DNA of 64,000 nt from a virus. Its lineage: Duplodnaviria > Heunggongvirae > Uroviricota > Caudoviricetes. The DNA lies in IMG/VR virus record IMGVR_UViG_3300032007_000013. One strand, written 5' to 3'. The notes below the pieces were generated by a model. That model worked only from the letters and a program-made list of their open reading frames with translations, had not been told where the DNA came from and ran no database searches. A program made the position numbers and the translations under genes. This document shows, piece after piece, positions 23,057 to 39,752 of the stretch (its first letter is position 1; every line of letters starts with the position of its first letter).

Positions 23057-23104
23057 GTGATAAACGAAAATTTTATACTACATTTAGTGGAGGAATATAT
23101 AGAT

Positions 23105-25390
23105 ATGGTTATTAAACGTGATAACTCAAAAGTTGCCTTTGATGGCAAGAAAATTATAGATGCTATTAATAAAGCATTTATTGAAGTAGATGGTCAGTTA
23201 TATGAAAATGATACTGCTACTGATATTGCCATTGAAATAGGTAAAAAATATATTAATGATGATGTTGATGTTGAAACAATTCAAAATGAAGTAGAAGATT
23301 ATTTAATGCGATCAGAACGCAAAGATGTAGCCCGTGCTTATATTCGTTATAGATATAAAAAAGAAGTAGCTCGAAAAGTTAAAGATGATTTTATTGCTCC
23401 TATCAAGGATAAACTTGAAGCAGCTAATGTATAGAATCAAAACGCTAATGTCGATGAACATTCATTCGGTGGCCGCATGGGTGAAGCTGCTAGCTATATG
23501 ACTAAAAAATATGCTCTTGATTATCTTATTTCTGATATGGCAAGATATAATCATTTAAATAATAGAATTTATATCCATGATTTAGACCATTATGCTCTTG
23601 GTGACCATAATTGTTTAAGTGTACCATTTGATGAATTATTAGCAAATGGTTTCAATACTCGTCAATCTGATGTACGTCCTGCTGGGTCTGTAAATACAGC
23701 TTGCCAATTAGTAGCTGTTATTTTCCAACTTCAATCATTACAATAGTTCGGCGGAGTAAGTGCTACACATATTGACTGGACAATGGTTCCATATATTCGT
23801 AAAAGTTTTACTAAACATATTGAAGATGGATTAGTTTATATAGAACATTTATCTTAGTATAAATAGAAACGTTTTACTAAATGGTTAAAAAATGATCCAG
23901 AACATCCAGATGGAACTATCCACTTTGATGATGCTGATTTTTAGAAGAAGCATCCAGAAGTATTTGAATATGCTATGGATATGACTGAAAAAGAAGTTCA
24001 TCAAGCTGTCGAAGGTCTTTATCATAATTTAAATACATTACAAAGTCGTTCTGGTAATCAATTGCCATTTACTTCTATTAATTATGGTACTTGCACTTTA
24101 CCAGAAGGAAGAATGTTTACTCGTGCTTTACTAGAAGTTAGTATTGAAGGACTTGGAAAATTACATAAAACTTCTATTTTTCCATGCGGTATTTTTTAGT
24201 GTATGAATGGCGTTAATCGTAAATATGGTGATCCAAATTATGATTTATACATTTTAGCATTAGAAAGTACTTCTAAACGTCTTTATCCAAATTATGCTAA
24301 TGTAGATTGGTCTGGTAATGCTGGATATGATAAAAATGATCCAACTACTTATTTCAGCACCATGGGATGTAGAACTGTCAATGGAGCTGATATTAATGCA
24401 GAACCAGGCGTAAATCCTCAACGCAAAGATGGCCGTGGTAATATTTGTCCAGTAACAATTATTATGCCGACTTTGGCTATGGAGGCATGGGAAAAGTTGG
24501 ATAATTAGCCATGGGAAACCGATGGAGATGGTACTCAATATAAAGGCGGAAATGTAGTAGATACTTTTATGGAATTATTAGATAAAGCAATTTTTGATGC
24601 CAGAGACATGCTTTTAGAGCGTTTTGAGTGGATTTGTTCACAAGACCCATCTAGTGCTAAGTTTATGTATGAAAATAATACCATGAGTGGTTATCATCCA
24701 AGAGAAGGAATTATTAGTGCCCTTAAGCATGGTACATTAGTTATTGGACAGCTTGGTTTGGCTGAAACTCTTCAAATTCTTATCCATCAAGATCATACAA
24801 CTGCTACTGGTATGGAAGTTGCTAAACGTATTGAACAATTATTTAAAGATAGATGTGCTCAATTCAAACAAGAAGAGCATTTAAATTTTGGTGTTTATTA
24901 TACTCCTGCGGAGAATCTTTGTTATACAGCTCTTAAAAAATTCCGTGAAAAATATGGGGTTATTAAAAATATTAGCGATAAGGATTTCTTTACAAATTCT
25001 ATTCATGTACCTGTTTGGAAAAATATGAGTCCATTCGATAAAATTGATATTGAAAGTCAATTAACTGGATATAGTAATGCTGGATGCATTACTTATGTAG
25101 AATTAGATGCTTCTGTTGTTCATAATATTGAAGCATTAGAATAGATTGTTAATTATGCTATGGATCATGATATCCCATATTTTGCTATTAATGTTCCTTC
25201 TGATACTTGTTTAGATTGTGGTTTTTAGGGAGAAATAAATGATAAGTGTCCTATGTGTGGAAGTACTCATATTCAACAATTGCGTCGTGTAACTGGTTAT
25301 TTAACTGGTAATTATAAAACTGCTTTTAATCTTGGCAAACAAGATGAAGTCCATTATCGAGTAAAACATGTTGGAGAAATGACACAATGA
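23105..25390 (+). CDS. nrdD: Anaerobic ribonucleoside-triphosphate reductase with ATP cone (761 aa)
   Basis: VIKRD ATP cone, YIHDLD, QSLQQFGG, TLQSRSGNQLPFTSINYG, TMGCRT, TPAENL, FFTNS, CLDCG..CPMCG, RRVTGYL glycyl-radical motif. Confidence 0.96.
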
Positions 25391-26601: not shown

Positions 26602-27263
26602 TGTCTATTAAAGAAAATACTATTCAATTAAAAAATGATGTAATAAAAATAGCTGAATAGTATCTTAATTCATTAAGTCCTATATTAATTTAGTATTATA
26701 ATAATTTAAATAACAATAAAATTGATGATATTGATTTAATAGATATAAACGAATTATATTCTTCATTTTCTAATTTTATAATTGAACAAATGGAAGATAT
26801 GCTTGGCGATGTTTATCAAGCTGTTGTAAAATTTATAAAAAATACTTATGGAAATACTGATTACCCTATTAGTGAAATAGAATTTTATCATAAAGATAAT
26901 TTAACAATTCAAGATAGATTATTTAAATGGTTTAATCCTACAAGCAATAATTTTATAAATGATAAAATTACTGCTATTTATTATTTATCAAGAATATTAA
27001 AATCTGAATGTCGTAATACTGAAGAAAAAACAAAACATGATAAACTTTGGGAACTTTGTGATTATTTCATAATTGATAATGAAGATGAAGATTTTTGTAA
27101 TACAGTTCCAGAATGTCAATTAAATTAGGGACGTCATTATAAAAATGAAAATATTAAATTGCCATTATATCATCCAGAATGTGAATGTTTTATTGAATAT
27201 TATGGCAAAAATTTAGGATTAATTGGCGTTGAAGATTATGATGAATTAAAGGAGAATAATTAA
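26601..27263 (+). CDS. Hypothetical protein with C-terminal MuF-like P.YHP.C.C motif (220 aa)
   Basis: ...FCNTVPECQLNQG...KLPLYHPECECFIEY. Confidence 0.55.
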
Positions 27264-27778
27264 TGAATATATATTTAGCTGGACCAATCTTCTTTTATGG
27301 AGATTATTTAAGAAATATTGAATGGGCTAATAAAATTAGATAGGCATTTCCAGATGCCTATCTATATAGTCCAGTAGAGAATACAGATATAAATGGTGTA
27401 GAGGGCAAGAAAAAATTCGCCGGCTCACAAGAAATCGCCAATGGAGATAATATTCGTCTTGATAATACTGATGTATTGATTGCCTGTATTGATGGTGATG
27501 TGCTTCCTTCTGGTACTTGTGCTGAAATTGGCAAGTTTCATGAAAAAATTATGCGTGGCGATAATAAATATATTATTGGTATTTGTACCGATACTCGTCA
27601 ATGTTATAATACTCATAGTGAAGCAAAAGATGCTGGTGGGGCTGCTAGTTTAGGAGAGCAACAATATAGTTATCAAAATCTTTATGTTACAGGTTTAATT
27701 AAGCAAGCTGGAACATTAGTTTATACTATCGACGAAGTTATTGATGTTTTAAAAAAGGTTGCTGATAAATATGAATAA
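27263..27778 (+). CDS. Nucleoside 2-deoxyribosyltransferase / nucleotide N-glycosidase family protein (171 aa)
   Basis: MNIYLAGPIF...YSPVEN...DNIRLDNTDVLIACIDG...SGTCAEIG...YQNLYVTG. Confidence 0.8.
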
Positions 27779-28574
27779 ATGTTTTGACGTTCCATTTAAT
27801 TTTGATGAATCTTTTATTTACGCAATTGAAAATATAAGATTCTAGAAGTATAAAATTAATTCTTATTATATTTATCCTTTTTCAGAAGACTATGAAATGA
27901 CAGATTTAACTAGTACAATTACAATGCCTTCAACAAGAGAAGAATATGAGCATTGGCTAATTGAATATTTTAAAGCTAATGTTGATTTAAATTTATTTAA
28001 AATGCAATTAATATTAGAAAATCCTAATACAGTTATGGACAAGAATACATTAAAATATTATTTAAATTTTGGTTTTTCTCAATTTAGTTGTTCTAGTATT
28101 GAACAAGCTCAAATTATTAAAGAAGTATATCCAGAAGCTGAAATTATTGGATCTATATTTATGAATATTTCTTCTGAAAAGTTAGAACAACATCCTGAAT
28201 ATCAAGATTATTTTAATAAATTTGTTTTACCTTTTTCTTATAATAGAAATATAGATGCTATTAAATTATTACCAGATACTTATGAATATATTATTATACC
28301 GAATGCTAATCTTCAAATAAATGATAATTTAACTAAAGAAAATTTTACTTCATTACAAGATTTAAGCTAGTTAGTAAATAAAGAAACATATTTAAATTCA
28401 GCAAAAATAAGACCAGTTGATATAATGTATTTTAGTAAATATGTTCATTAGTTTAGATTATAGCATCCTGACTGGACAACTACTTGGATTTTATAGGAGC
28501 TAATTGGTTATTCATATTTATATGAAAATTATCCTAATATAGAATATAATAAAGCGATATATGGAGAGACATAA
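27771..28574 (+). CDS. U32-family-like protein, Cys-degenerate paralog (267 aa)
   Basis: Aligns by eye with 35806-36636 (FD.P(F/Y)NFD, Q.....S..QA..IKE..P..EI.GSI.M, FVL.F.YNRNI) but lacks its Cys cluster. Confidence 0.6.
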
Positions 28575-28579
28575 TATAA

Positions 28580-29839
28580 ATGATTAATAAAAATATTGAT
28601 TATAAAGAAGATTATTTATATCCGGTAAATATTCATTTAAATCTTACTGATGACTGTAATTTACGTTGTAAATATTGTTTTGTTCATCATAAGCCTAATT
28701 ATATGCCACTAGAAGTTGCTTTAAAAGCTGTAGATTGGCTTTATGAAAATTATCTTTATCATAAAGAACATAATACTTTGTTAACATATACAAATAATGG
28801 AAAATGTAATATTTAGTTTTTTGGTGGAGAACCAATGTTGTGCTATGAAAGTGTCATTAAACCAGTTGTAAAATATTGTAATGAAAAATATCCTTTTGCT
28901 TTTCATTATGGTATTACAACTAATGGAACTTTATTGAATAAAGAGAGAATAGATTTTTTAAAAGAAAATAATTTTTCTATTCTATATTCAATTGATGGGC
29001 CTCCAGAAGTATAGAATTATAGTAGACCTTGTAAAGATCCTAATATAAAAAGTTTTGATTTAATGGCTAAAAATTTACCATATTTATTAAAGTAGTTTCC
29101 ATATTTGCCTTTCAGACAAACAATAAATATTGATACTGTAGATCATTTATATGATGGATATAAATATGCTGAATAGCTTGGATTTAAATATTGGGTATAC
29201 GTTATAGATAAAATTCACCCACAAGGTTGGACAGATGAGAAAAAAGAAATTCTAAGAGACCAAATTAACCACATATATTACCATAGAATTATTTAGTTAT
29301 AGAATAATGTTTTACCTATGCAAACTCCTAGAATGGATTTAAGTTTATGGAATGTAATATAGACTTTATTGGCCGCGGCAGATGAAACAGGAGAGTATGA
29401 GAGTTCTTTAACTCCAAGGATATGCGGAGTTGGATTAATGGCAGAATCTGTTGCTCATAATGGAGATATCTTTACATGCCAAGAATAGGTTACTTGGGAT
29501 AATAATAATATTTTTAAAGTAGGAAATATCTTTGAAAATAAAATTGAAATATAGAAATAGAAGAATATTTTTGAAAGATTTATTAAAGAATTAAAAGAGA
29601 TAGATTTAAGTGGTAATAAGTAGTGCCAAAATTGCCCACTTAGATTATTTTGTGAAGGTAGTGTTTATTGTCCATCAACGTCTTATATGTTGCATGGAAA
29701 ATTAGCTTATCCACCAGAAGATATAGATTGTTTTGAAAAATAGGTTCATTATCAAAATATTATGCTTATGCTATAGTTATTATTAGGTTAGGATAATGAA
29801 GCTATACATAAATTTTTAACAAATTAGTAGATATTTTAA
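28580..29839 (+). CDS. Radical SAM/SPASM peptide maturase-like protein 1 (419 aa)
   Basis: CNLRCKYC, FFGGEP, TTNGTLL, SIDGP; SPASM CGVG...GDIFTCQE...CQNCPLRLFCEGSVYCP; about 16 TAG=Q by manual count. Confidence 0.9.
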
Positions 29840-29868
29840 TATCTATAGAAAGGAGAGGCAGTTATATA

Positions 29869-30369
29869 ATGGCAACTTTTTGTAGTAGTAATCAATTAGC
29901 TATAAATTATATTAGTTCTAGCGATACTAATGTTTAGTCTTTGATTACAAAAATTAAAAATGGAACTGCTTTAGTAAGTGCCGGTACCGCAGCCGATGAT
30001 GCTTTATATAATCGTTTAATTACAATTTTAAATTTAATATATAATTATGGAAAATATGGTACTAGAACGAATAATCCTGGTTCAATTCCCGCCACAGTTA
30101 GTGCTGGTACTACTATGAGTTATACTAAATATAATCAAATGTTAGCTTCTTTAAGTACTCCTTCTGGAACTAATACTAGCAGAACTGGTTCTAATATTAG
30201 TGCTGGAACGGCAATGACAGCTACTCAAATTAATAACCTAGGAAGTTATTTAAAAGCTTATAAATTTTATAAAAATAGATGTAATAGTTGTAATACTGCC
30301 CAAGGATGTGGAGATAGTGGTGGTGGCGGTTATGATTCTTGCTATGGTGGTACTGGCGGCCGTTGTTAA
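29869..30369 (+). CDS. Long-leader Cys/Gly-rich precursor-like protein 1 (166 aa)
   Basis: T/S/G/A-rich body; C-terminal core RCNSCNTAQGCGDSGGGGYDSCYGGTGGRC*; GAAAGGAG RBS; directly after rSAM1. Confidence 0.75.
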
Positions 30370-30371
30370 TT

Positions 30372-31643
30372 ATGATTAATACAATTTGTATAGTGCTAAA
30401 TAGTAAATGTAATTTAAATTGTAAATATTGTTCTGCCAATAAAGATATTGTTACTTTAAATTTTAATCAAATTATTCAGAATGCCTGGAAAGATAATACC
30501 TATTTAAATACTGTTAAATAGGTATTATTTAAATTAAATATTCCATTAACTAATATTACTCATATTTATTTATGGGGCGGTGAACCTTTATTAGATTTAT
30601 CTTATTTTAATTCTTCAATAAGAGATTTATTTCAAATTTTTCCAAATATTAATTCTTTTTGGACTTCTACTAATTTTAATATTAATATAGAAAAATTAAT
30701 TGAATTATTTTAGAATATAGAATTATATGCTAATCAAAATATTAAGTTTGATTTATAGATTTCTATGGATGGCATTTATAATGAAAATGGCCATAATTTA
30801 CCAGTATCTTTATATTAGAAAAATTTAGAATTATTAATTAATAAATTAAATTTATTTAAAATGTCTAAACTGTATTTAAATTTAAATTTTAGATCTACAT
30901 TATTAGAAGAAGATTTTTTAAATAATTTAAATACAGAAGAAAATATAAATAATTATTTTCTTCAATAGAAAGAATTATTGAATTTTGTAAATAATTTAAT
31001 AATAAATGGTCATATAATATTTTCTAATATTTTAATTCCAAGACTTGCTACTCCAAGTTACTCTACTTCAAGTAGTGGCATTGAATTATATAAAAATATT
31101 TAGTTATGGGATAAAATTGCTAATAATTATGAATAGATAATTTTAAATTTACCATTAAAATTTTTTGCTAATAATTATGAATGTCCTAATTATACTTCTA
31201 GTTTAATTATTTTACCAGATGGCGGTATTAGTTATTGTGTTTACAGCTATTTAACAGCTATTGAAAATTATGAAAGAAGTAAAATAGAAAATAGTTATTT
31301 TTTTAATCCATTAATAATGCCAGAAGAAAAATGTAAAAGATAGTACAGTTATTTAGTTAATGGAGTTAAAAATAATATATCTACACATAGAACTATTGCT
31401 TTTAATTTATGTAAAGATTTATTGCATAGTAATCAAATTTCATAGATTTATGAAAATGATGATATATTATTAAAACATTTAATTTTAATGGAAAGTCTTA
31501 CTGATTGTATGTTTAATGCTGTCCATGAAACAACTGTCCCATATGCGAATTCTCCATCTTATTTTAGGAGATATTTTAATGGAATTGCTGAATACATATA
31601 TAATAAAAAAATGTCGTTATTAAAAAAGGAATTATAGTTATGA
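30372..31643 (+). CDS. Radical SAM protein 2, divergent auxiliary-cluster domain (423 aa)
   Basis: CNLNCKYC, LWGGEP, STN, ISMDG; twitch-like CPNYTSSLIILPDGGISYC. Confidence 0.82.
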
Positions 31644-32959
31644 AAACTTATTTAGATGAAGATAATGAAGTATTTAATACTATTTTAGAACAAGAATATT
31701 TTACCGAGTTTAAATTAGGAAATAAAAGTATTGAATTAGAATTATCTGGCTTATGTTCAGCAAATTGCCAATATTGTTATTTAAAAAAATATTAGAAAGA
31801 TTTATTTCCAAAAGAATTATATAATGAAAAAAATATTATTGATAATATAAATTTATTATTACAATGGTATATAAAAAATAATTTTACTTGTAGAATTAGT
31901 TTATTTTCTGGTGAATGGTTAACTACTTCTCTTATGGAACCAGTATTTAATTCTATTTATAATAATTTTAAAGATGCCCAAGAATATTAGAAACCAATTG
32001 ATATTTTAATTCCAGATAATATGAATTTTATACATAGTACAGAACTTACTGATAAAATTTAGTATTATATAGATTTGTTATAGTCTATTCATATTCCAAT
32101 AATAATTAGTGCTAGTATTGATGGAAAGTATTGTGATTTTGGAAGAGTAGAATAGTCAGATGAATTTTATCAAAAATGTTTTGAATTTTGTGATAAAAAT
32201 AATTTTTTCTGTCATCCTATGATTTCTCCATAGAATATAAAGAATTGGAAAGAAAATTATTTATGGTGGCTCACTAATGCCCCACAAAAAATTGTAGAGA
32301 ATTTAGTAATGCTTGAAACAAAAAATGAAAATTGGGATAATGATTCTATTTTAGCTTTATTAGATTTTTGTAATTTTTTAATTGAAAGTAAATTAATAAA
32401 ATATAATAATGATTTATTAAAATTTGCTAATTCAATTTTTTATCCAAAAGGGTATACCATAGAATAGTCAAAAATCCGTTTATATAATTCTAAAAAGTCC
32501 AAAGGTATTACTTGTACAATGTCTAAAGAATTATCTATTCGAGTTGCTGATTTATCTTTAATATTATGTCATAGATTATCTTATGAAGAATTATTACTTG
32601 GTAAATTCATTATAGAAGATAATTAGATTACAAAAATATAGGCTAATAAAAACAAAGTACCTCTTTTATCTATAAAAGCTCATTTTAATAGAAGTTGTGC
32701 CCCATTATGTGAAAAATGTATTTTTGAACCAATATGTCCAGGATTCTGTTGCGGTTTGGCTTATGAGACTTTTAATAATATTTTAGTACCAACGCCAAAC
32801 ATGTGTAATATGTATAAAACAAAATATATTTTTTTAATTAAAAAATATAATGATATGGGCATTTTTGATTTAATAGAAAATAATATTTTTCAATTTAAAT
32901 TAGAAGAAGAAAAACATTATATTCTTAGTTTAAGAGATACTATATTAAATGAGGTATAA
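31640..32959 (+). CDS. Radical SAM/SPASM protein 3 (439 aa)
   Basis: CSANCQYC, LFSGE, SASIDG; CTMS...LCHRL...CAPLCEKCIFEPICPGFCCG...C. Confidence 0.87.
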
Positions 32960-32962
32960 TAT

Positions 32963-33226
32963 ATGGATAATTTATTTTATAAAATGACATTTGAATGTTC
33001 TAATAATTTTTCTATTACTGATGCTTATTATTATTTAGAAAAAATATATAATAATTTACAATATCTAGAAAATGGTTATGAAATTATAGATTACCAAAAA
33101 TTAATTTATATAGATTTTTATTATGGATATGATAATGATATTTAGTTTTATTTAACAAAAATAAAAGAGATTATAGCAAATTTTTGGATAAATGAATAGA
33201 AAATTATTATTAGAGTAAAAAATTAA
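32963..33226 (+). CDS. Small hypothetical protein in the rSAM cluster (87 aa)
   Basis: GAGG RBS; MDNLFYKMTFECSNN...KIIIRVKN*. Confidence 0.6.
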
Positions 33227-33310
33227 AAAAAATATAAATTTTATAAAACTTATATTTTTTTAATTTATATTTATAAATTATTTATAATAAAGATATATAT
33301 GAATAGTAAT

Positions 33311-33340
33311 AGGATAAGTTAATACTTATCCTCTTATTTT
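33311..33340 (+). terminator. Terminator ending rSAM module 1
   Basis: AGGATAAGT-TAAT-ACTTATCCT followed by CTTATTTT. Confidence 0.7.
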
Positions 33341-33368
33341 TGACTTTTGAAAAAAAATATGCTATAAT
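33340..33368 (+). promoter_or_regulatory. Sigma70/SigA promoter for rSAM module 2
   Basis: TTGACT-N17-TATAAT with extended -10 TG. Confidence 0.8.
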
Positions 33369-33415
33369 TTTTTAATAGATAAAAGAAAAATATTTTGAAA
33401 GGATTATATTTTATA

Positions 33416-34711
33416 ATGGAAAGTTTTGTATATGAAGAAAGTTTTTTACATCCTACTAATATATTATTAAATGTTACAGATGCATGTAATTTAAAATGTC
33501 GATACTGTTTTGTTGAATAGCATCCTCATTATATGAATTTTTCAACCGCAAAAACTGCTGTAGATTGGGTAGTATCTAATTATTATTGGAAATTAGAAAG
33601 AAATATAATTAAAGAAGACAAGCATATTACTATTTATTTTTTTGGTGGAGAGCCTACTTTATAGTGGGATATAATTATTCAACCATTATGTAAATATTGC
33701 AAATCACAATATCCTAATTTAATATTTAAATTTGGAATGACTACAAATGGAACGCTCCTTAATGAAGAACGGATTCAATTTTGTAAAGAGTATGATTTTC
33801 ATATATTATTATCTTGCGATGGTGATCAAGTTACATAGAATTATAATAGACCTTGTCATAATGAACAAATAGATAGTTTTAATTTAATAAAACCAAATTT
33901 ATATTTAATTAAAAAATATTTCCCAACAACAACTTTTAGGTCTACAATAATTCCAGAAACAGTACATAATTTATATAATGATTATTGTTTTGCTGAATCA
34001 TTAGGGTTTACTTGGTATTATTCAATGCCAAATTGCCGCTAGCATTGGCCAGAAGACAAAATAAATATTTTAAAAGAACAAATGTAGAAAATTTTTATAA
34101 GAAGAACAAATCAATATATTTTAGGAATTGAGCCTATGCATTTTTCTCTAATAAATGAATTTTATAATTTTATTTTATCTAGAGATATATCATTTGCTAC
34201 AAATGATGATTATTTTATTAATAAAAAGAATCCTTCTAAGAAAGTAAATAGATGTGGTTTAGGAATTAATCAATGTGCAATAGCTTATGATGGAAATATT
34301 TATGGTTGCCAAGAACAACCTAGTCAAGGAAGAAAAAGTTTTTTTTATATTGGTAATTTATTTATAGACCAAGGAATAAATAAAAAAGAACATAATAGGT
34401 TATTAACTGCTTATGTAAATAGACAAAATTTAATTTGTGAAAATAAAATTTTATGTTAGAAAGAGAATTGCCCTTTATGGAACATTTGTTATGTAAAAGA
34501 TTGTCCTTCTACCTCGTATGATTTATTTCAAAATTTAAATACATAGAGTGAAATAAAATGTATATGGAAATCAATTATTTTAAATAATTGTATAACACAA
34601 ATGAAAATTTTAATAGATAAAAATTGTGAATATTTTATTAATTATTTAAATCGTTTACCAAGTTTTATTGAAATTACATAGCAATTAAGGTTAATAGAGC
34701 AATAGGAGTGA
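33416..34711 (+). CDS. Radical SAM/SPASM peptide maturase-like protein 4, paralog of rSAM1 (431 aa)
   Basis: LNVTDACNLKCRYCFVEQHPHYM, FFGGEP, TTNGTLL, SCDG, RCGLG...DGNIYGCQEQ...CPLWNIC...CPSTSY. Confidence 0.9.
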
Positions 34712-34716
34712 AAAAT

Positions 34717-35265
34717 ATGTCAACATAGTATATTCGTAATTTTTATTGTAATACTGATTAGACCCAAAAAGGGAATAGAATTACAAATAATTTAAGTACA
34801 CAAACTCAAAAACATTAGATAATAACTCCAAAAGATTATAATGAAATGATTAATGTACTTAAAAAAGTTCATGATTTTGGAGAAAGTGATACTACTACTA
34901 GAAAACCAAAATTATCTAGTATTACAATTAAAGTTAATGGTATTGATGTTCTTTTAAAGAAAGAATAGTTTGATCTTATTGAACCAGACTTCTATAATAA
35001 TATTTTAATTTCATTAGAATAGACACGTAGAGAAGCTAAGTTTAATATTATCTATGGAAGTTATTTTGATGATTTGTTAGAAAAAGTTAAAAATTATAAA
35101 ATTCCTTCTACAAGATATTATACAACAACTACAACATGTTGTGATTGTTATGGAGATTGTTGTGATAATGATTGTTGCGATAGTGATTCAGGAGGATGTG
35201 CTGATACGGATTATTGTAATTGTATTAGTTGTGATGATTATCATTGTGGTTTTGATTATGTCTAA
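34717..35265 (+). CDS. Long-leader Cys/Asp-rich precursor-like protein 2 (182 aa)
   Basis: C-terminal core CCDCYGDCCDNDCCDSDSGGCADTDYCNCISCDDYHCGFDYV* (12 Cys, 11 Asp in 42 aa); directly after rSAM4. Confidence 0.78.
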
Positions 35266-35294
35266 TATATTATAATAAAGAAAGGTGAAGTTTT

Positions 35295-35819
35295 TTGAAT
35301 ATCGAAGAAATTAAACAAATTTTAAATGCTTATGATAGTACTATTTAGCAAGAAGCTTCAGAAGGATTTAAAACTTTCTATGATATAGAAAATGTATTAA
35401 TATTTATTTTAGATGAATTAGATGATATTGAACATAAAATATCTAATAAAATTATTAAATTAAATGATTATAATTATTTTATTTGCAACGATGAGCGTGG
35501 AGTAGAAGAATTTGATGAAAATTATTTAGTAAAATTTTTATATCAAAATTTTATAAAAGGATAGAATATTATTCTTTATGATGCATTATATAAAACTTAT
35601 TATTATATTAATAGTGTTTATAAAGAAAAAGATGATTATATTATGAATTCATTTTGTGTCCGTTTAGTTTATTATGATAATAAATATAATCAAATGATAA
35701 CTTTTTTTTCATTACGTTATAATGAAAAAGATGATAAAACTTATAAATATACTTATAATATAAATTTACCTATGTTAATAGAAAGAATTAAAAAAGAAAA
35801 AAACGATGAAACCATTTGA
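35295..35819 (+). CDS. Hypothetical protein in the rSAM cluster (174 aa, TTG start)
   Basis: AAGGTGA RBS; open with TAG=Q. Confidence 0.6.
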
Positions 35820-36636
35820 TCTTCCTTATAATTTTGATATTAATTTAATAAATTTTTATGATATTTATTTCAATGAAAATATAAATAGGCAAATACATTC
35901 TATATATTTGCCTCCTTATTTAAACGATTATATTACTGCTAAAAATAATCAAAAAATGCACACTATATATAATACATTAAAAATAAAAAATATTATTCCA
36001 ACTGATGAACAAGAGTATCAAGAACATATTTCATATATCAATAAGTTATTGCCAGATACATTAATGCTATTATTATAGTAGAATGAACTATTAATGCCAT
36101 ATAATATATTAGAAAAATATTTAAAGTTAAATATTAAACAATTTTGCGTTGGATCACTTAATCAAGCTAAAATGATAAAAGAGATAGATCCGAGTATTGA
36201 AATTACTGGTTCTATTACTATGAAAATGATGCCAGATGATTTAATAAAATAGAATAATATTTTAAATCAATATTTTGATAATTTTGTTTTATGGTTCCCA
36301 TATAATAGAAATATTAAAATGATTCAGTAGTTACCACCAAATTTTAATTATATTTTATTACTCAATTGTACTTGTAGCATTAATTGTTAGGGTACTTTTC
36401 ATTGGTTTGCCGCTGAAAATGATATTATAAAATGTCCTGCGGTATAGGAAAAAAATATTTAGAAACAAATGATAATTCCAAGAGATTTCCTTTATTTATT
36501 TAATGATTATATTAATATTTATAAACTTTAGGGACGAGAGTTTCCTACAAAATTAATCATTGAACAAATTATTTATTATAATACAACAACTCCAAAAAGT
36601 TTTTCTTTGTTAAAAGAATCTGATTTTCAAAAATAA
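35806..36636 (+). CDS. U32 family protein with Cys motif (276 aa)
   Basis: TIM-barrel-like pattern, LLNCTCSINCQGTFH...KCP, YKLQGRE (equivalent to the U32 KIEGR motif). Confidence 0.7.
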
Positions 36637-36642
36637 TAAAAT

Positions 36643-36692
36643 AAAAAAAAAGACTTTAATAATATTTAAATATTATTAAAGTCTTTTTTTTT
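36643..36692. terminator. Bidirectional terminator (perfect 50-nt palindrome) between convergent modules
   Basis: AAAAAAAAAGACTTTAATAATATTT|AAATATTATTAAAGTCTTTTTTTTT. Confidence 0.85.
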
Positions 36693-39663
36693 ATTTTATT
36701 TTAATCCAAATTCTATTATTTACTTCAACATTATCTGTTCCCCATACCTTATACTAAGGAATTTCACTAACAATACCAATAATACAATCTGGATATTCTT
36801 TGATTTCTTCTCTTGTCATAATATCAACTGTTCCATCTGGAGCAGAGCATACTGCCATTCCAGCATGATAATTATTTTTATCCTAATAAGTATAAACTAA
36901 TACTCGTCCAGCCACTGCTAATGGAGTTTTACATTTTTCTGTATATCCCATTGAATGACCAAAAGTATCAGAAATGACCTAAGCCCCTGACTATAAACGT
37001 TTTGAAGCACAAGATAAAGAACCATCATCATTATCAATCACAACTCGACCTGGCTCTAAATTAATAGTAGTTCTGTATTCAGCATAATCATTAAAAACAG
37101 CATTAAATACTCTTGCTCCATAAACATTTTTAGTAAAATAAGCTCCTCCTTTAGAATATAAAGAGGAGTCTGTAGTAGGAATAACTCCATCGGTAATTCC
37201 ACTAGTATTATTAATAGTTAATTTTCCAGTAATTGTAGCAGTTCCACCAACAGATAAATTACTATTAGTTCCACTTAATGTAAAACTACCAGTTAAAGTA
37301 TTGCTCCAACCTGGTTTTCCATTTTTGGTATTTCCACCACGCCAAAATTGAGCAGTAGTGCCACCATTAGTGACCTCATATAGTGGATCTGCACTAATCT
37401 CATTTCCATTTATATATAAAGTATTAAAATATCCTTTATCGGCACTTACATAACTATTGGCTGGGCCGCCTTTGTTTCCTTCTTCTATGGTGTTATATTC
37501 CATAATATAAGCATGATCAATATATTTATCACTATCTCCTAAATTAACAGCATGCACAAAATTCCAACGATAATTTTTTGTTCCTAAATTCCCAGTCCCA
37601 TCGGCAAAAGGACGAACATTACTCGCCCCAGCTTCTTCATTACCAAATATCGCTGCTTTAGCATATAAAATGTTCCACTATTTAGTAGAAGACCCTAAAT
37701 TTTTTCCGACAGTACCATTAGCATTTGGGTCTGGGATCATATGATTAATAATATTACTCTTTGGATTAAAAGTTCCATTAACAACAACATTTCCATCTAA
37801 GGTAATAGCCTATAAAGTAGTTTCATTTTTAGCAGTAATGGTAGTATTTCCTTCACTTGTGATTCCTATTGTGCTACTAGTAGATATATTAATAGGTTGG
37901 TTACTTTTATTATCGAAACCCTTTATTGGTATTTCATATAATTTACCATTAATCTATATTCTAAAAGTACCAGATTTCTAATCCTCTTTAGGGGCTGTAG
38001 GCTATGTAGCATTATCATTGGCAGTCATTGTTTTAATAAAGAAAGTATGGTTTTCTCCATTATCATCAATATTATAATCAAAATTATCGGACCATTTAAT
38101 ATTATTACCAAGTTTTACATATTTATATCCATAAAGAACATTTGCTCCAGCCTAATTTAAAATTTCGGCTTCCATAGCTTTAATAGCATCTTCAATTGCT
38201 GTTATTTCTTCTCCTAAATCCTTTATTCTATTTCCAATAGAATTATAATCAGCTTTTAAACGTTCCAAATTTTTAGCAATAATACCATCTTCTGGATTTC
38301 CTATAGTATTAATAATATTTTCAAAGCCATCATAAAAAATAGTTTTCATAGTATAAAAATCAGGAGATGATTCTTCGTCCCATTTCCATAATTCATCTTC
38401 TTGTATTAACTATTGAATAATGGCGCGCAAACCCTAAACATTAACAGGAGTAGAATATTTAACTTCTTGATTATTATCATCAAGACCAGTATAAGATAAA
38501 TTCATCCATTCCTAAGTGCTATGAAGATTTCTAATTCTATCAATTTGTTCCTAAGAAAAACCAATAGTAGCTAATTCTTGTAAAAAAGTTAAATAATTAT
38601 AAGCAATAATAAAATCAGCAAAACTAGCAATAAACTGTTGTTCATCAATACTAAAAATATTTACTAATGTATTATTCTAATTTATAGTACTATTTTTTAA
38701 ATTAGTTAACTCAGAATATAAATGAATTCTATCATCAAATTTTAAATTTGTATAAATAAAAGATAGTTTTCCTTCATCATTTATACTTGCATACATCTTT
38801 TCATTATTACAAAGTGTAACCCATTCATCTGGAGTCGTATAAGTAAATCTCTAATATTCATTATTGTCATCTAAATAATAATAAATTTTATTTTCATCAT
38901 ATGATGCTCCAGAAGTAACTTTTTCAAATGAATCTAATTTTACATCTGTATAATATAAACTAATTTTAGATAATGTTAATGGAGATAAATTTCCGTATGA
39001 AACTCCATTATAAACATAAATTTCTCCTCTAGAAACTTTATTATCCCAATCTACGTCTCCATCAGTATAAATAGTATAAACGTTTTCATCATTAAGATAA
39101 TAATAAGTAACATTAGCATTATATTCAGTTCCTGGCTTTAAAGTTTCAAATTCATCTATAGGACCTAATGAATCAATTGTTGTATACCTATCAGAAAATG
39201 GAAAATTTAAAATAGACAAACCTGCTTTTAAAAATTCTTCTTTAGAATTTGCAATTTTATCCCAAATACTTTTTATTCTTTGGGCTTCTAATTCTTTATC
39301 TTCCTAAATCTCTTTATTCTAAGCAAATGCTGTAAGTACTTTCTGAGATATATATTCTGCATTATGTAATTCTATTTTTTTATTTCTTAATTCTTCTTTT
39401 TTTCGTTCAATTTCTTCTTGAAGTTCTTCAGCAAAAATAATATTTCCTTTTAAACTTCTATCATCGCCATAAGTAATTTTTAAACATGGTGTATCATCAG
39501 TATAAGCATGCCAAATTTTATTATCATGTAAAGCATCTTTTTTATTTTCATTTGATACATAATCAATATCTATAATTGGATAATTTTTTATTTGTGTTAA
39601 AAGATTCTAAAAAGCATCACGTTTTAAAACGATATTATCTTCATATCTCTTATCATAAATCAT
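36691..39663 (-). CDS. Tail fibre/spike protein with C-terminal intramolecular-chaperone-like domain (990 aa)
   Basis: Four track ORFs join in one frame with TAG=Q; NLG....W repeats; AVFNDYAEY...SDTFGHSMG...AVAGRV (peptidase G2-like autocleavage domain); GAAAGGAG RBS. Confidence 0.72.
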
Positions 39664-39752
39664 AGAAGTATGTTCTCCTTTCTCACTAAAATGAAGAATA
39701 TTTCTATATAAGAACAAAATTTATCAAAAAAAATTAATTATATTAGTCCAAA

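Follow-up and report, generated by a model that had tools for sequence, protein, structure and literature searches.

A TAG-recoded phage locus in which two exchangeable cassettes of radical SAM enzymes and Cys-tailed proteins may modify a protein of the phage itself

A 64,000-nucleotide stretch of DNA from a tailed rumen phage (IMG/VR virus record IMGVR_UViG_3300032007_000013; the whole stretch is called the window below, and all positions are counted along it) carries a cluster at 27771-36636, on the plus strand, in which radical S-adenosylmethionine (SAM) enzymes are encoded beside proteins with Cys-rich C-terminal tails. The favoured explanation, with a probability of roughly 55%, is that the locus modifies a protein of the phage itself: two exchangeable cassettes would staple, by thioether bonds, a protein that is probably associated with the tail. 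This explanation builds on the gene content, family membership, synteny, cassette exchange and predicted folds established here, and its parts differ in strength. Stapling of the Cys-tailed proteins by the neighbouring enzymes is probable, thioethers are the somewhat favoured chemistry, and a place for the stapled protein among the tail-associated virion components is nearly an even prospect, tilting slightly to the negative. The cluster is not a one-off, but an elaborate member of a large phage family.

A recoded cluster of ten genes

Translated with table 11, the region from 27.7 to 36.7 kb is broken into open reading frames (ORFs) of 50-157 amino acids (aa). With TAG read as Gln, the same region becomes ten contiguous, tightly packed ORFs on the plus strand, which encode two distant U32-fold proteins, four radical SAM enzymes (rSAM1 to rSAM4), two Cys-tailed proteins (here candidate substrates 1 and 2) and two small ORFs (Table 1). 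A preliminary description of this DNA had held that the cluster is hidden by recoding and would reappear if genes were called again under code 15; this proved correct, with the ORFs lying where it had placed them. The phage reads TAG as Gln, as is evident from stop codons, in-frame TAG codons and Gln columns alike. All 44 long ORFs of the recoded window end in TAA or TGA (0/44 in TAG), and TAG makes up 5-70% of the Gln-type codons in nearly every gene. The rSAM1 gene contains 16 in-frame TAG codons, among which Q145 and Q303 correspond to invariant or nearly invariant Gln columns in a 64-sequence family alignment, where some homologs may be TAG-coded at the same positions. A phage-encoded suppressor tRNA(CUA) was not found, nor was a tRNA of any kind, within the 64-kb window; two tRNA-Sup-CTA genes are present in Phass-1, a related code-15 phage. 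Phass-1 is the nearest named phage relative and belongs to the "Caudoviricetes code 15 clade" (PMC10607447), in a paper that makes no mention of its radical SAM genes. Code-11 annotation destroys genes of this kind, so that they are systematically overlooked.

Cluster genes have a GC content of 0.15-0.26 (30000-36000), against mostly 0.27-0.35 for most of the remaining window, and this AT-richness is consistent with an exchangeable accessory region. TAG density was considered as a marker of late genes and rejected, since TAG codons occur all along the window and do not clearly set early genes apart from late ones.

Table 1. Features of the cluster and its borders
Feature	Position	Strand	Evidence or remarks
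U32a, 267-271 aa, paralog of U32b	27771..28574	+	ORF only with TAG read as Gln; family hidden Markov model (HMM) 1e-80
rSAM1, radical SAM/SPASM maturase, 419 aa	28580..29839	+	Radical_SAM, SPASM and PapB matches
Candidate substrate 1, 166 aa	29869..30369	+	Family HMM E 2e-41
rSAM2, divergent radical SAM, motif CNLNCKYC	30372..31643	+	Fer4_12 E 1e-5, Radical_SAM E 2e-4
rSAM3, divergent radical SAM, SPASM-like Cys cluster	31640..32959	+	Weak PapB/ScmE/SPASM matches
87-aa ORF	32963..33226	+	Homologs after first module in L002-L004 (85% identity) and after rSAM3-like gene in L005
Terminator-like hairpin (33311-33332), then promoter-like site (33340-33368)	33311..33368	+	Left breakpoint of module 2 cassette
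rSAM4, radical SAM/SPASM maturase, paralog of rSAM1	33416..34711	+	Radical_SAM E 1.9e-14, PapB E 4e-45
Candidate substrate 2, 182-185 aa	34717..35265	+	Family HMM E 3e-45
174-aa ORF, conserved with module 2	35295..35819	+	94% identity in L002-L004
U32b, 276 aa, TIM barrel, U32-like fold	35806..36636	+	AF2, Foldseek, VIA
Long A/T-flanked inverted repeat between the convergent U32b and 1008-aa genes	36646..36690	.	Right breakpoint of module 2 cassette
Putative tail fibre, 1008 aa, convergent with cluster	36691..39717	-	Context

Maturase-like enzymes and their Cys-tailed neighbours

The CxxxCxxC motif can be read directly in all four radical SAM translations (4/4), as had been claimed. Also borne out is the close relationship of rSAM1 and rSAM4, which are clear paralogs (37% identity, E 5e-80) and both have Radical_SAM and Fer4_12 domains; the rSAM4 ORF opens at TTG 33395, and ATG 33416 is the likely start. 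The CX3CX2C motif takes the form CNLRCKYC in rSAM1 and CNLKCRYC in rSAM4, and its Cys are invariant across 64 homologs, as are seven Cys in the SPASM region of rSAM1 (C282, C300, C349, C352, C358, C364 and C384). Pfam recognizes Radical_SAM (E 3.7e-12) and SPASM (E 8e-4) in rSAM1. The best NCBIfam match is the PapB model NF047865 for both enzymes (rSAM1 E 1.3e-42, 146.2 bits; rSAM4 E 4e-45, 154.5 bits), aligned end to end at positions 5-328 of 330, and the next ranks are held by the Nif11, CcpM, SCIFF and lachnocin maturases. These top ranks are all peptide maturases, with PapB first. By family ranking rSAM1 and rSAM4 thus go with peptide maturases; a place among sulfatase or cofactor maturases, which would have spoken against the preliminary description, is not what the ranking gives: PapB scores of 146 and 154 bits stand against 93.1 (rSAM1) and 52.9 bits (rSAM4) for the anaerobic sulfatase maturase TIGR03942, whose cutoff of 349 is not reached, and the sulfatase-maturase target motif C/S-x-P/A-x-R is absent from both neighbouring proteins. 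The two enzymes appear to belong to a phage-restricted maturase clade with hundreds of members.

SPASM-type Cys clusters had been attributed to rSAM1, rSAM3 and rSAM4. This stands for rSAM1 and rSAM4, given the full-length PapB matches and the SPASM domain of rSAM1, and is less clear for rSAM3, which has only weak matches (PapB E 1.6e-7, ScmE C-terminal region E 1.3e-6, SPASM TIGR04085 E 5e-3). In rSAM2 a generic radical SAM core alone is present, and SPASM was detected by neither Pfam nor NCBIfam.

Each of rSAM1 and rSAM4 is directly followed by a protein with a Cys-rich C-terminus, again as first described. Candidate substrate 1 has a folded N-terminal domain (N-domain) of ∼137 aa and then a 29-aa Gly/Ser-rich tail with 5 Cys, all Cys columns being kept in 10 close homologs. 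Candidate substrate 2 has an N-domain of the same family and a 42-aa tail with 12 Cys and 11 Asp. The two show no mutual similarity by BLASTP; they are united by a family profile, sharing the N-domain and differing in their unrelated tails. A profile of the N-domain only, with tails removed, finds at least 125 clusters (clustering at 50% identity) in a set of 1.8 billion representatives; their length is mostly 150-260 aa. The tails are a regular property of this family: of 129 full-length members, 121 carry 5 or more Cys among their last 50 residues (median 9), and Cys content is 18% there versus 3.7% elsewhere in the protein. A junction motif of the type xYKxNxDR-C-x2-C-N-T (xYKxNxDRCNxCNT) is found in 115/140 members, and an N-terminal motif C..Q.[FYW]C in 68/140. 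Within subfamilies every Cys column is kept, and divergence is only slightly greater in the tails than in the N-domains; tails of different subfamilies are unrelated.

The N-domain is predicted to be well folded and the tail disordered: an AF2 model built from 72 sequences has a predicted local distance difference test (pLDDT) score of ∼90 over residues 10-140 and below 50 over residues 146-166. No fold match was returned by Foldseek at E <= 1e-3 in PDB, BFVD or AFDB clusters, and the best Z in a wide structural search (VIA) was 4.7. Against NCBIfam neither candidate substrate has a match at E <= 1, except for a spurious VanXY match (E 0.04) of candidate substrate 2. A relaxed HMM search of the remaining proteins of the window found no further members of the N-domain family. 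A complex prediction with near-identical database copies (P0239 with P0103; alignments A7 and A8) scored 0.02 and gave no verdict.

Pairing of this family with maturase-like enzymes extends well beyond the window. In nine distinct loci outside it, comprising Phass-1 (L001), L002, L007, L008, L009, L011, L012, L173 and further IMG/VR loci, the family member adjoins a radical SAM/SPASM gene in every case (9/9), directly downstream in eight and one small ORF away in L008. There are two pairs each in the window and in L002-L004, and one each in Phass-1, L007, L008, L009, L011, L012 and L173. Among the 11 closest IMG/VR loci (enzyme with at least 420 bits against the family HMM), nine have, directly downstream, a 170-260-aa ORF whose last 50 residues include 7 or more Cys. 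All of these contexts are large phage-like contigs of 20-290 kb, most of them TAG-recoded. DNA near-identical to that of the window occurs in bovine and sheep gut metagenomes. By comparison, 80 bacterial loci from species-representative genomes, with enzymes 24-33% identical, contain no N-domain, U32-like protein or long Cys-tailed neighbour; short Cys peptides occur at 4 of the 80. A single-protein pattern scan of IMG/VR with rSAM1 gave no relative, and megablast of 27000-37000 against GenBank phages gave no match. Synteny in related phages, and co-occurrence of precursor-like genes with these enzymes in homologous loci, had both been put forward as tests, and maturase-substrate pairs were indeed found in L002-L004 and in every further locus examined.

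The type of tail tracks the type of enzyme. In L008 the same N-domain bears a CX3C-repeat tail and lies one small ORF from a maturase of the TIGR04115 CXXX-repeat family (356.8 bits, cutoff 350), which shows that the N-domain can be combined with different maturase clades; one N-domain thus occurs with different, matched pairs of tail and enzyme. This covariation bears on whether the enzymes act on their neighbours at all. Cys tails might instead bind Zn or Fe-S, metal binding being possible with C-x2-C-x3-C patterns, and the target of the radical SAM and U32-fold enzymes might be a nucleic acid, cofactor or glycan. The generic core of rSAM2 would suit that arrangement, as would the fact that the targets hydroxylated by characterised U32 proteins are tRNA, rRNA or ubiquinone and not proteins (PMC10990095). 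We regard such adjacency without a substrate relation as highly improbable, given that the pair stays adjacent across very divergent phages, that tail type and maturase clade change together, and that, for both rSAM1 and rSAM4, peptide maturases account for all of the best family matches.

Modules with two enzymes are found again outside the phage group of the window: in Phass-1 (L001:10941-11972) and in L011 (L011:4739-5851), a shorter radical SAM gene (343-370 aa) lies directly before the maturase-substrate pair. The genes for rSAM2, rSAM3 and the 87-aa ORF form a separate sub-module, which in L005 follows a 166-aa protein with a (YSQ/YNQ)n tail and no Cys. The L005 region (L005:2738-10543, in a 247-kb code-15 phage) contains this 166-aa protein with its (YSQ/YNQ/YSE)n repeat, then rSAM2-like and rSAM3-like genes, a homolog of the 87-aa ORF, three tandem U32-like genes and two more distant paralogs. 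The rSAM3 ortholog is 32% identical to that of the window (E 2e-65), and the rSAM2 ortholog is directly 3' of the 166-aa protein with its (YSQ)n tail. This arrangement may be a Tyr-directed version of the system. Tyr/Ser repeat tails similar to that of the 166-aa protein are also present in P0228 and P0163.

Cassette exchange, the tail apparatus and the fate of the product

Both modules are exchanged as cassettes between phages that are ∼90% identical. The window and L002 share ∼90% DNA identity on both flanks, and in L002 the segment 27753-33085 (U32a, rSAM1, candidate substrate 1, rSAM2 and rSAM3) is replaced by 2.3 kb with a different maturase and a different, 194-aa family member. Collinearity resumes at 33085, the right breakpoint of module 1 being the 3' half of the 87-aa ORF, and beyond it rSAM4 and candidate substrate 2 are 96% and 93% identical, respectively. 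A contig from another bovine sample (run X3, record 5) follows the window through module 1 up to 33368, continues with 3.6 kb of unrelated DNA, and rejoins it at 36686. Module 2 is therefore also exchangeable, with breakpoints at regulatory elements. On the left these are the terminator and separate promoter that had been recognized between the modules, a hairpin followed by TTGACT-17-TATAAT with an upstream TG (extended -10), which scores 11 of 12 and is the best sigma-70-like site of the region; the inverted repeat on the right is probably a bidirectional terminator.

The cluster had been described as abutting a tail-fibre gene. Adjacency to the convergent 1008-aa gene is clear; that its product is a tail fibre would follow from context, as the protein has no Pfam, PHROG or PDB sequence match, and nor do almost any of the other structural genes. 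Homologous clusters in L002, L005, L007 and L008 are flanked by proteins with the same conserved ∼70 residues at the C-terminus, and within the phage group of the window the cluster always abuts a large protein with this C-terminus, among tail-collar-like genes. The last ∼140 codons of the 1008-aa gene (window 36691-38092 being its 3' part) are conserved across divergent phages, with 82% DNA identity to L008 and conservation also in L005 and L007, and close relatives have other DNA in place of the ∼1 kb just upstream of the conserved 3' part (37111-38092). Such a layout is in keeping with a variable receptor-binding part followed by a conserved, chaperone-like domain at the C-terminus.

A connection to the virion also appears within the substrate family. 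In P0172, encoded directly 3' of a radical SAM gene, the N-domain and Cys tail are followed by a Peptidase_S74 intramolecular chaperone domain, which otherwise ends tail fibres and tailspikes. Because of this fusion to a tail-fibre chaperone domain, the suggestion of a virion appendage gains independent support. The N-domain profile also matches, weakly, four repeats of P0222. This metagenomic protein of 1039 aa is a minor tail protein (phrog_346 E 1e-68, C-terminal Gly_rich_2) with about ten repeats of 'TTGNYNTLLTALFGSTTVG...VPTGIPQANISGL'.

In the favoured explanation the PapB/CteB-like enzyme of each cassette (rSAM1 or rSAM4) would act on the protein encoded immediately downstream. Reductive cleavage of SAM would give a 5'-deoxyadenosyl radical, which would take a hydrogen from the side chain of an acceptor (Asp, Asn, Thr or Gln) within the tail, and a Cys sulfur held at an auxiliary Fe-S cluster would form the thioether, leading to a multiply stapled knot. 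Such a knot would be possible in an anaerobic, reducing cytoplasm, where disulfides cannot form. The other enzymes of module 1 (rSAM2 and rSAM3) and the U32-fold, putative Fe-S proteins would probably add further modifications, which for the U32-fold proteins may be O2-independent hydroxylation. The variable tip of the stapled protein would contact the host, and cassettes would be swapped like receptor-binding modules. A more far-reaching and rather doubtful version is that radical SAM thioethers staple the far end of a tail-associated protein in large phages from anoxic gut environments, as an O2-independent, cytoplasm-compatible substitute for disulfide knots, that pairs of tail and maturase are swapped on a common N-terminal anchor to change host specificity, and that the U32-fold proteins are the first protein-directed hydroxylases of their family.

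The locus might instead make a released product, that is, a peptide made by ribosomes and then modified post-translationally (RiPP), with the N-domain as a large structured leader and the tail cut off by a host protease or a U32-type peptidase and freed at lysis as a bacteriocin-like or signalling peptide. A maturase beside a protein with a conserved N-terminal and a variable Cys-rich C-terminal part is the architecture of a RiPP, the junction motif could mark a leader-core boundary, and PrtC, a U32 member, is named a collagenase. Long structured leaders are known in proteusins (PMC10858898). In agreement with the preliminary description, however, no transporter or recognisable leader peptidase, and also no immunity gene, was found in the window or any related locus, and the loci examined include no bacterial counterpart with this precursor. 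Pairing of the N-domain with two maturase clades fits a functional domain better than an enzyme-specific leader, and in the S74 fusion the tail is followed by a fibre-folding chaperone. Release is accordingly judged unlikely.

Several findings weigh against stapling of a tail protein. On the side of chemistry, the PapB scores of rSAM1 and rSAM4 are far below the cutoff of 340 bits, and their scores against every other curated family likewise fall far short. Only ∼18-25 residues precede the radical SAM core of either enzyme, and no counterpart to the N-terminal RiPP recognition element (RRE) of CteB and PapB was aligned; the 87-aa or the 174-aa ORF may be a stand-alone RRE. The tail of candidate substrate 2 has 4 CX3D occurrences versus 2.9 expected from shuffled controls (P = 0.31), so that CX3[DE] enrichment, not being above shuffled composition, was rejected. 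This tail is still a plausible substrate, since PapB forms Cys-to-Asp/Glu thioethers with spacings from i+1 to i+7 (PMC12373016). Pfam PF01136 matches neither U32a nor U32b at E <= 10. On the side of a virion role, the modelled N-domain is globular rather than fibrous, the S74 fusion is one case among ∼140 family members, the pairs of Phass-1, L009 and L012 have gyrase, PhoH and dUTPase genes around them and not tail genes, and the cluster in the window shares its strand with replication and nucleotide-metabolism genes, not with structural genes, and comes after those for NrdD, NrdG and a nucleoside deoxyribosyltransferase on that strand.

These early or nucleotide-metabolism surroundings would suit an intracellular effector, a stapled or metal-binding Cys-tailed protein that serves as an unpackaged anti-defence or takeover factor; counter-defence loci, too, are typically exchanged as cassettes among near-identical phages. 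The S74 fusion and the location next to putative tail-fibre genes in the window's phage group argue for the virion instead, and no similarity to a known anti-defence family was seen in Pfam or PHROGs (the PADLOC library was not searched). An effector is therefore considered a still less likely outcome than a released peptide, ahead only of adjacency without a substrate relation.

U32-fold proteins and comparison with known systems

U32 proteins had been placed at both ends of the cluster. At the level of fold this stands, for U32b by predicted structure and for U32a as its paralog (32% identity, E 5e-28); by sequence U32 is not detectable, as the Pfam result above indicates. The AF2 model of U32b is a confident TIM barrel (pLDDT 89), its top solved match being the U32 peptidase 5d88 (Mk0906; Foldseek E 5.8e-6; VIA Z 15.7, root-mean-square deviation 3.1 over 205 residues); other TIM barrels reach a VIA Z of 12.4 or below. 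The top ranks among AFDB/Swiss-Prot structures are MJ1657, TrhP1, TrhP, UbiU, MJ0090, PrtC and UbiV. In the sequence comparisons 1 of 38 members of the U32-like family touches PF01136 (E 0.01), and identification as U32 by sequence was rejected, the family profile giving only chance RadA matches against PDB sequences. The link to U32 is thus one of predicted fold alone. U32b has at least 93 unnamed homologs, none of them with a Pfam domain, and in its family C114, C188, C190, C194, C210 and His199 are at least 90% conserved. These residues are absent from U32a, which has IIPNANLQINDN at the position where the family has NCxCSIxCxGTxH. The family is found only in the phage group of the window (L002-L008), in one to three, possibly five, tandem copies that always lie beside radical SAM genes. 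The 174-aa ORF has no Pfam, NCBIfam or PHROG match.

Those U32 proteins that have been characterised contain Fe-S and act as anaerobic hydroxylases that depend on prephenate (PMC10990095). Compared with the known members (UbiU/UbiV, TrhP, RlhA and PrtC; PF01136; 5d88), the predicted TIM barrel of U32b is closest to U32 proteins, and its conserved Cys cluster may be a counterpart of the four Cys that bind a 4Fe-4S cluster in UbiU/UbiV, but there is no match at the level of sequence, and the Cys pattern of the window family (NCxCSIxCxGTxH...CP) differs from the U32 signature. The context in the window points to protein modification rather than to hydroxylation of quinone or RNA. By loose analogy to the UbiU-UbiV heterodimer, U32a and U32b, one without and one with the Cys cluster, may work as a pair.

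PapB/PapA (freyrasin) is the closest known system by family score, with a radical SAM core and a SPASM domain bearing auxiliary-cluster Cys; as in the window, the maturase adjoins the gene of its substrate, which has a Cys/Asp-rich tail like that of candidate substrate 2 (12 Cys and 11 Asp in 42 residues). Unlike the window enzymes, which score 146-154 bits against the 340-bit cutoff with no N-terminal RRE aligned, PapB has its leader bound by an N-terminal RRE (PMC12373016). The window substrates are also 166-185 aa long with a folded N-domain, not a short leader, and are phage-encoded and TAG-recoded, with extra radical SAM and U32-fold genes alongside and no bacterial ortholog found.

Among solved structures, thioether-forming CteB (5wgg, E 6e-22) is the closest to rSAM1, which makes CteB/CteA (SCIFF, thermocellin; TIGR03974) a second point of comparison. 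The junction of the substrate family, C-x2-C-x3-C-x3-C, presumably resembles the Cys spacing of SCIFF. The alignment begins only at CteB residue 100, however, TIGR03974 scores are 107.4 (rSAM1) and 87.8 bits (rSAM4) against a cutoff of 425, and the window substrates of 166-185 aa contrast with a short six-Cys peptide of ∼45 aa, no NCBIfam model having matched them beyond the spurious VanXY. The CXXX-repeat system (TIGR04115) is similar in that a phage radical SAM/SPASM enzyme lies beside a Cys-repeat protein, often near tail-fibre genes, but the window maturases reach only 82.6 and 68.3 bits where the cutoff is 350, and their tails are not CXXX repeats.

QhpD is a radical SAM/SPASM enzyme that introduces several Cys-to-Asp/Glu thioethers into QhpC, the gamma subunit of quinohemoprotein amine dehydrogenase, a protein that is kept in a larger assembly and not set free as a peptide. 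Its model TIGR03906 matches rSAM1 and rSAM4 (E 7e-26 and 5e-24), though at 85-91 bits against a cutoff of 453, and the window has no dehydrogenase genes and an unrelated substrate family.

Thioether formation by radical SAM/SPASM enzymes is known for small bacterial peptides and one dehydrogenase subunit. A literature search found nothing relevant on phage radical SAM/SPASM thioether systems, phage ranthipeptides, or U32 proteins in RiPP clusters. New here are a family of candidate substrates with at least 125 clusters, whose predicted folded N-domain lacks a structure match in the libraries searched, an apparently phage-restricted maturase clade, an unnamed family with the predicted U32 fold, and cassette shuffling beside a putative tail-fibre gene. 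If the product is in the virion, phage assembly would include an enzymatic step of covalent stapling, and host range in rumen and gut viromes could be approached in a new way; if it is released, the family would amount to a large store of stapled peptides still to be explored.

Within 26899-36616, U32a, rSAM1, rSAM3, rSAM4, candidate substrate 2 and U32b are matched with no mismatch (100%) by contigs of a metatranscriptome library from bovine gut (run X4); this is compatible with transcription of the cluster, and DNA carry-over is possible. Upstream of the cluster, nrdD is intact in the window (777 aa, 23057-25390), and in the ∼92%-identical L002 (108-3272) a GIY-YIG endonuclease gene divides it into parts of 428 and 303 aa, apparently an insertion polymorphism of the homing-endonuclease or intron type.

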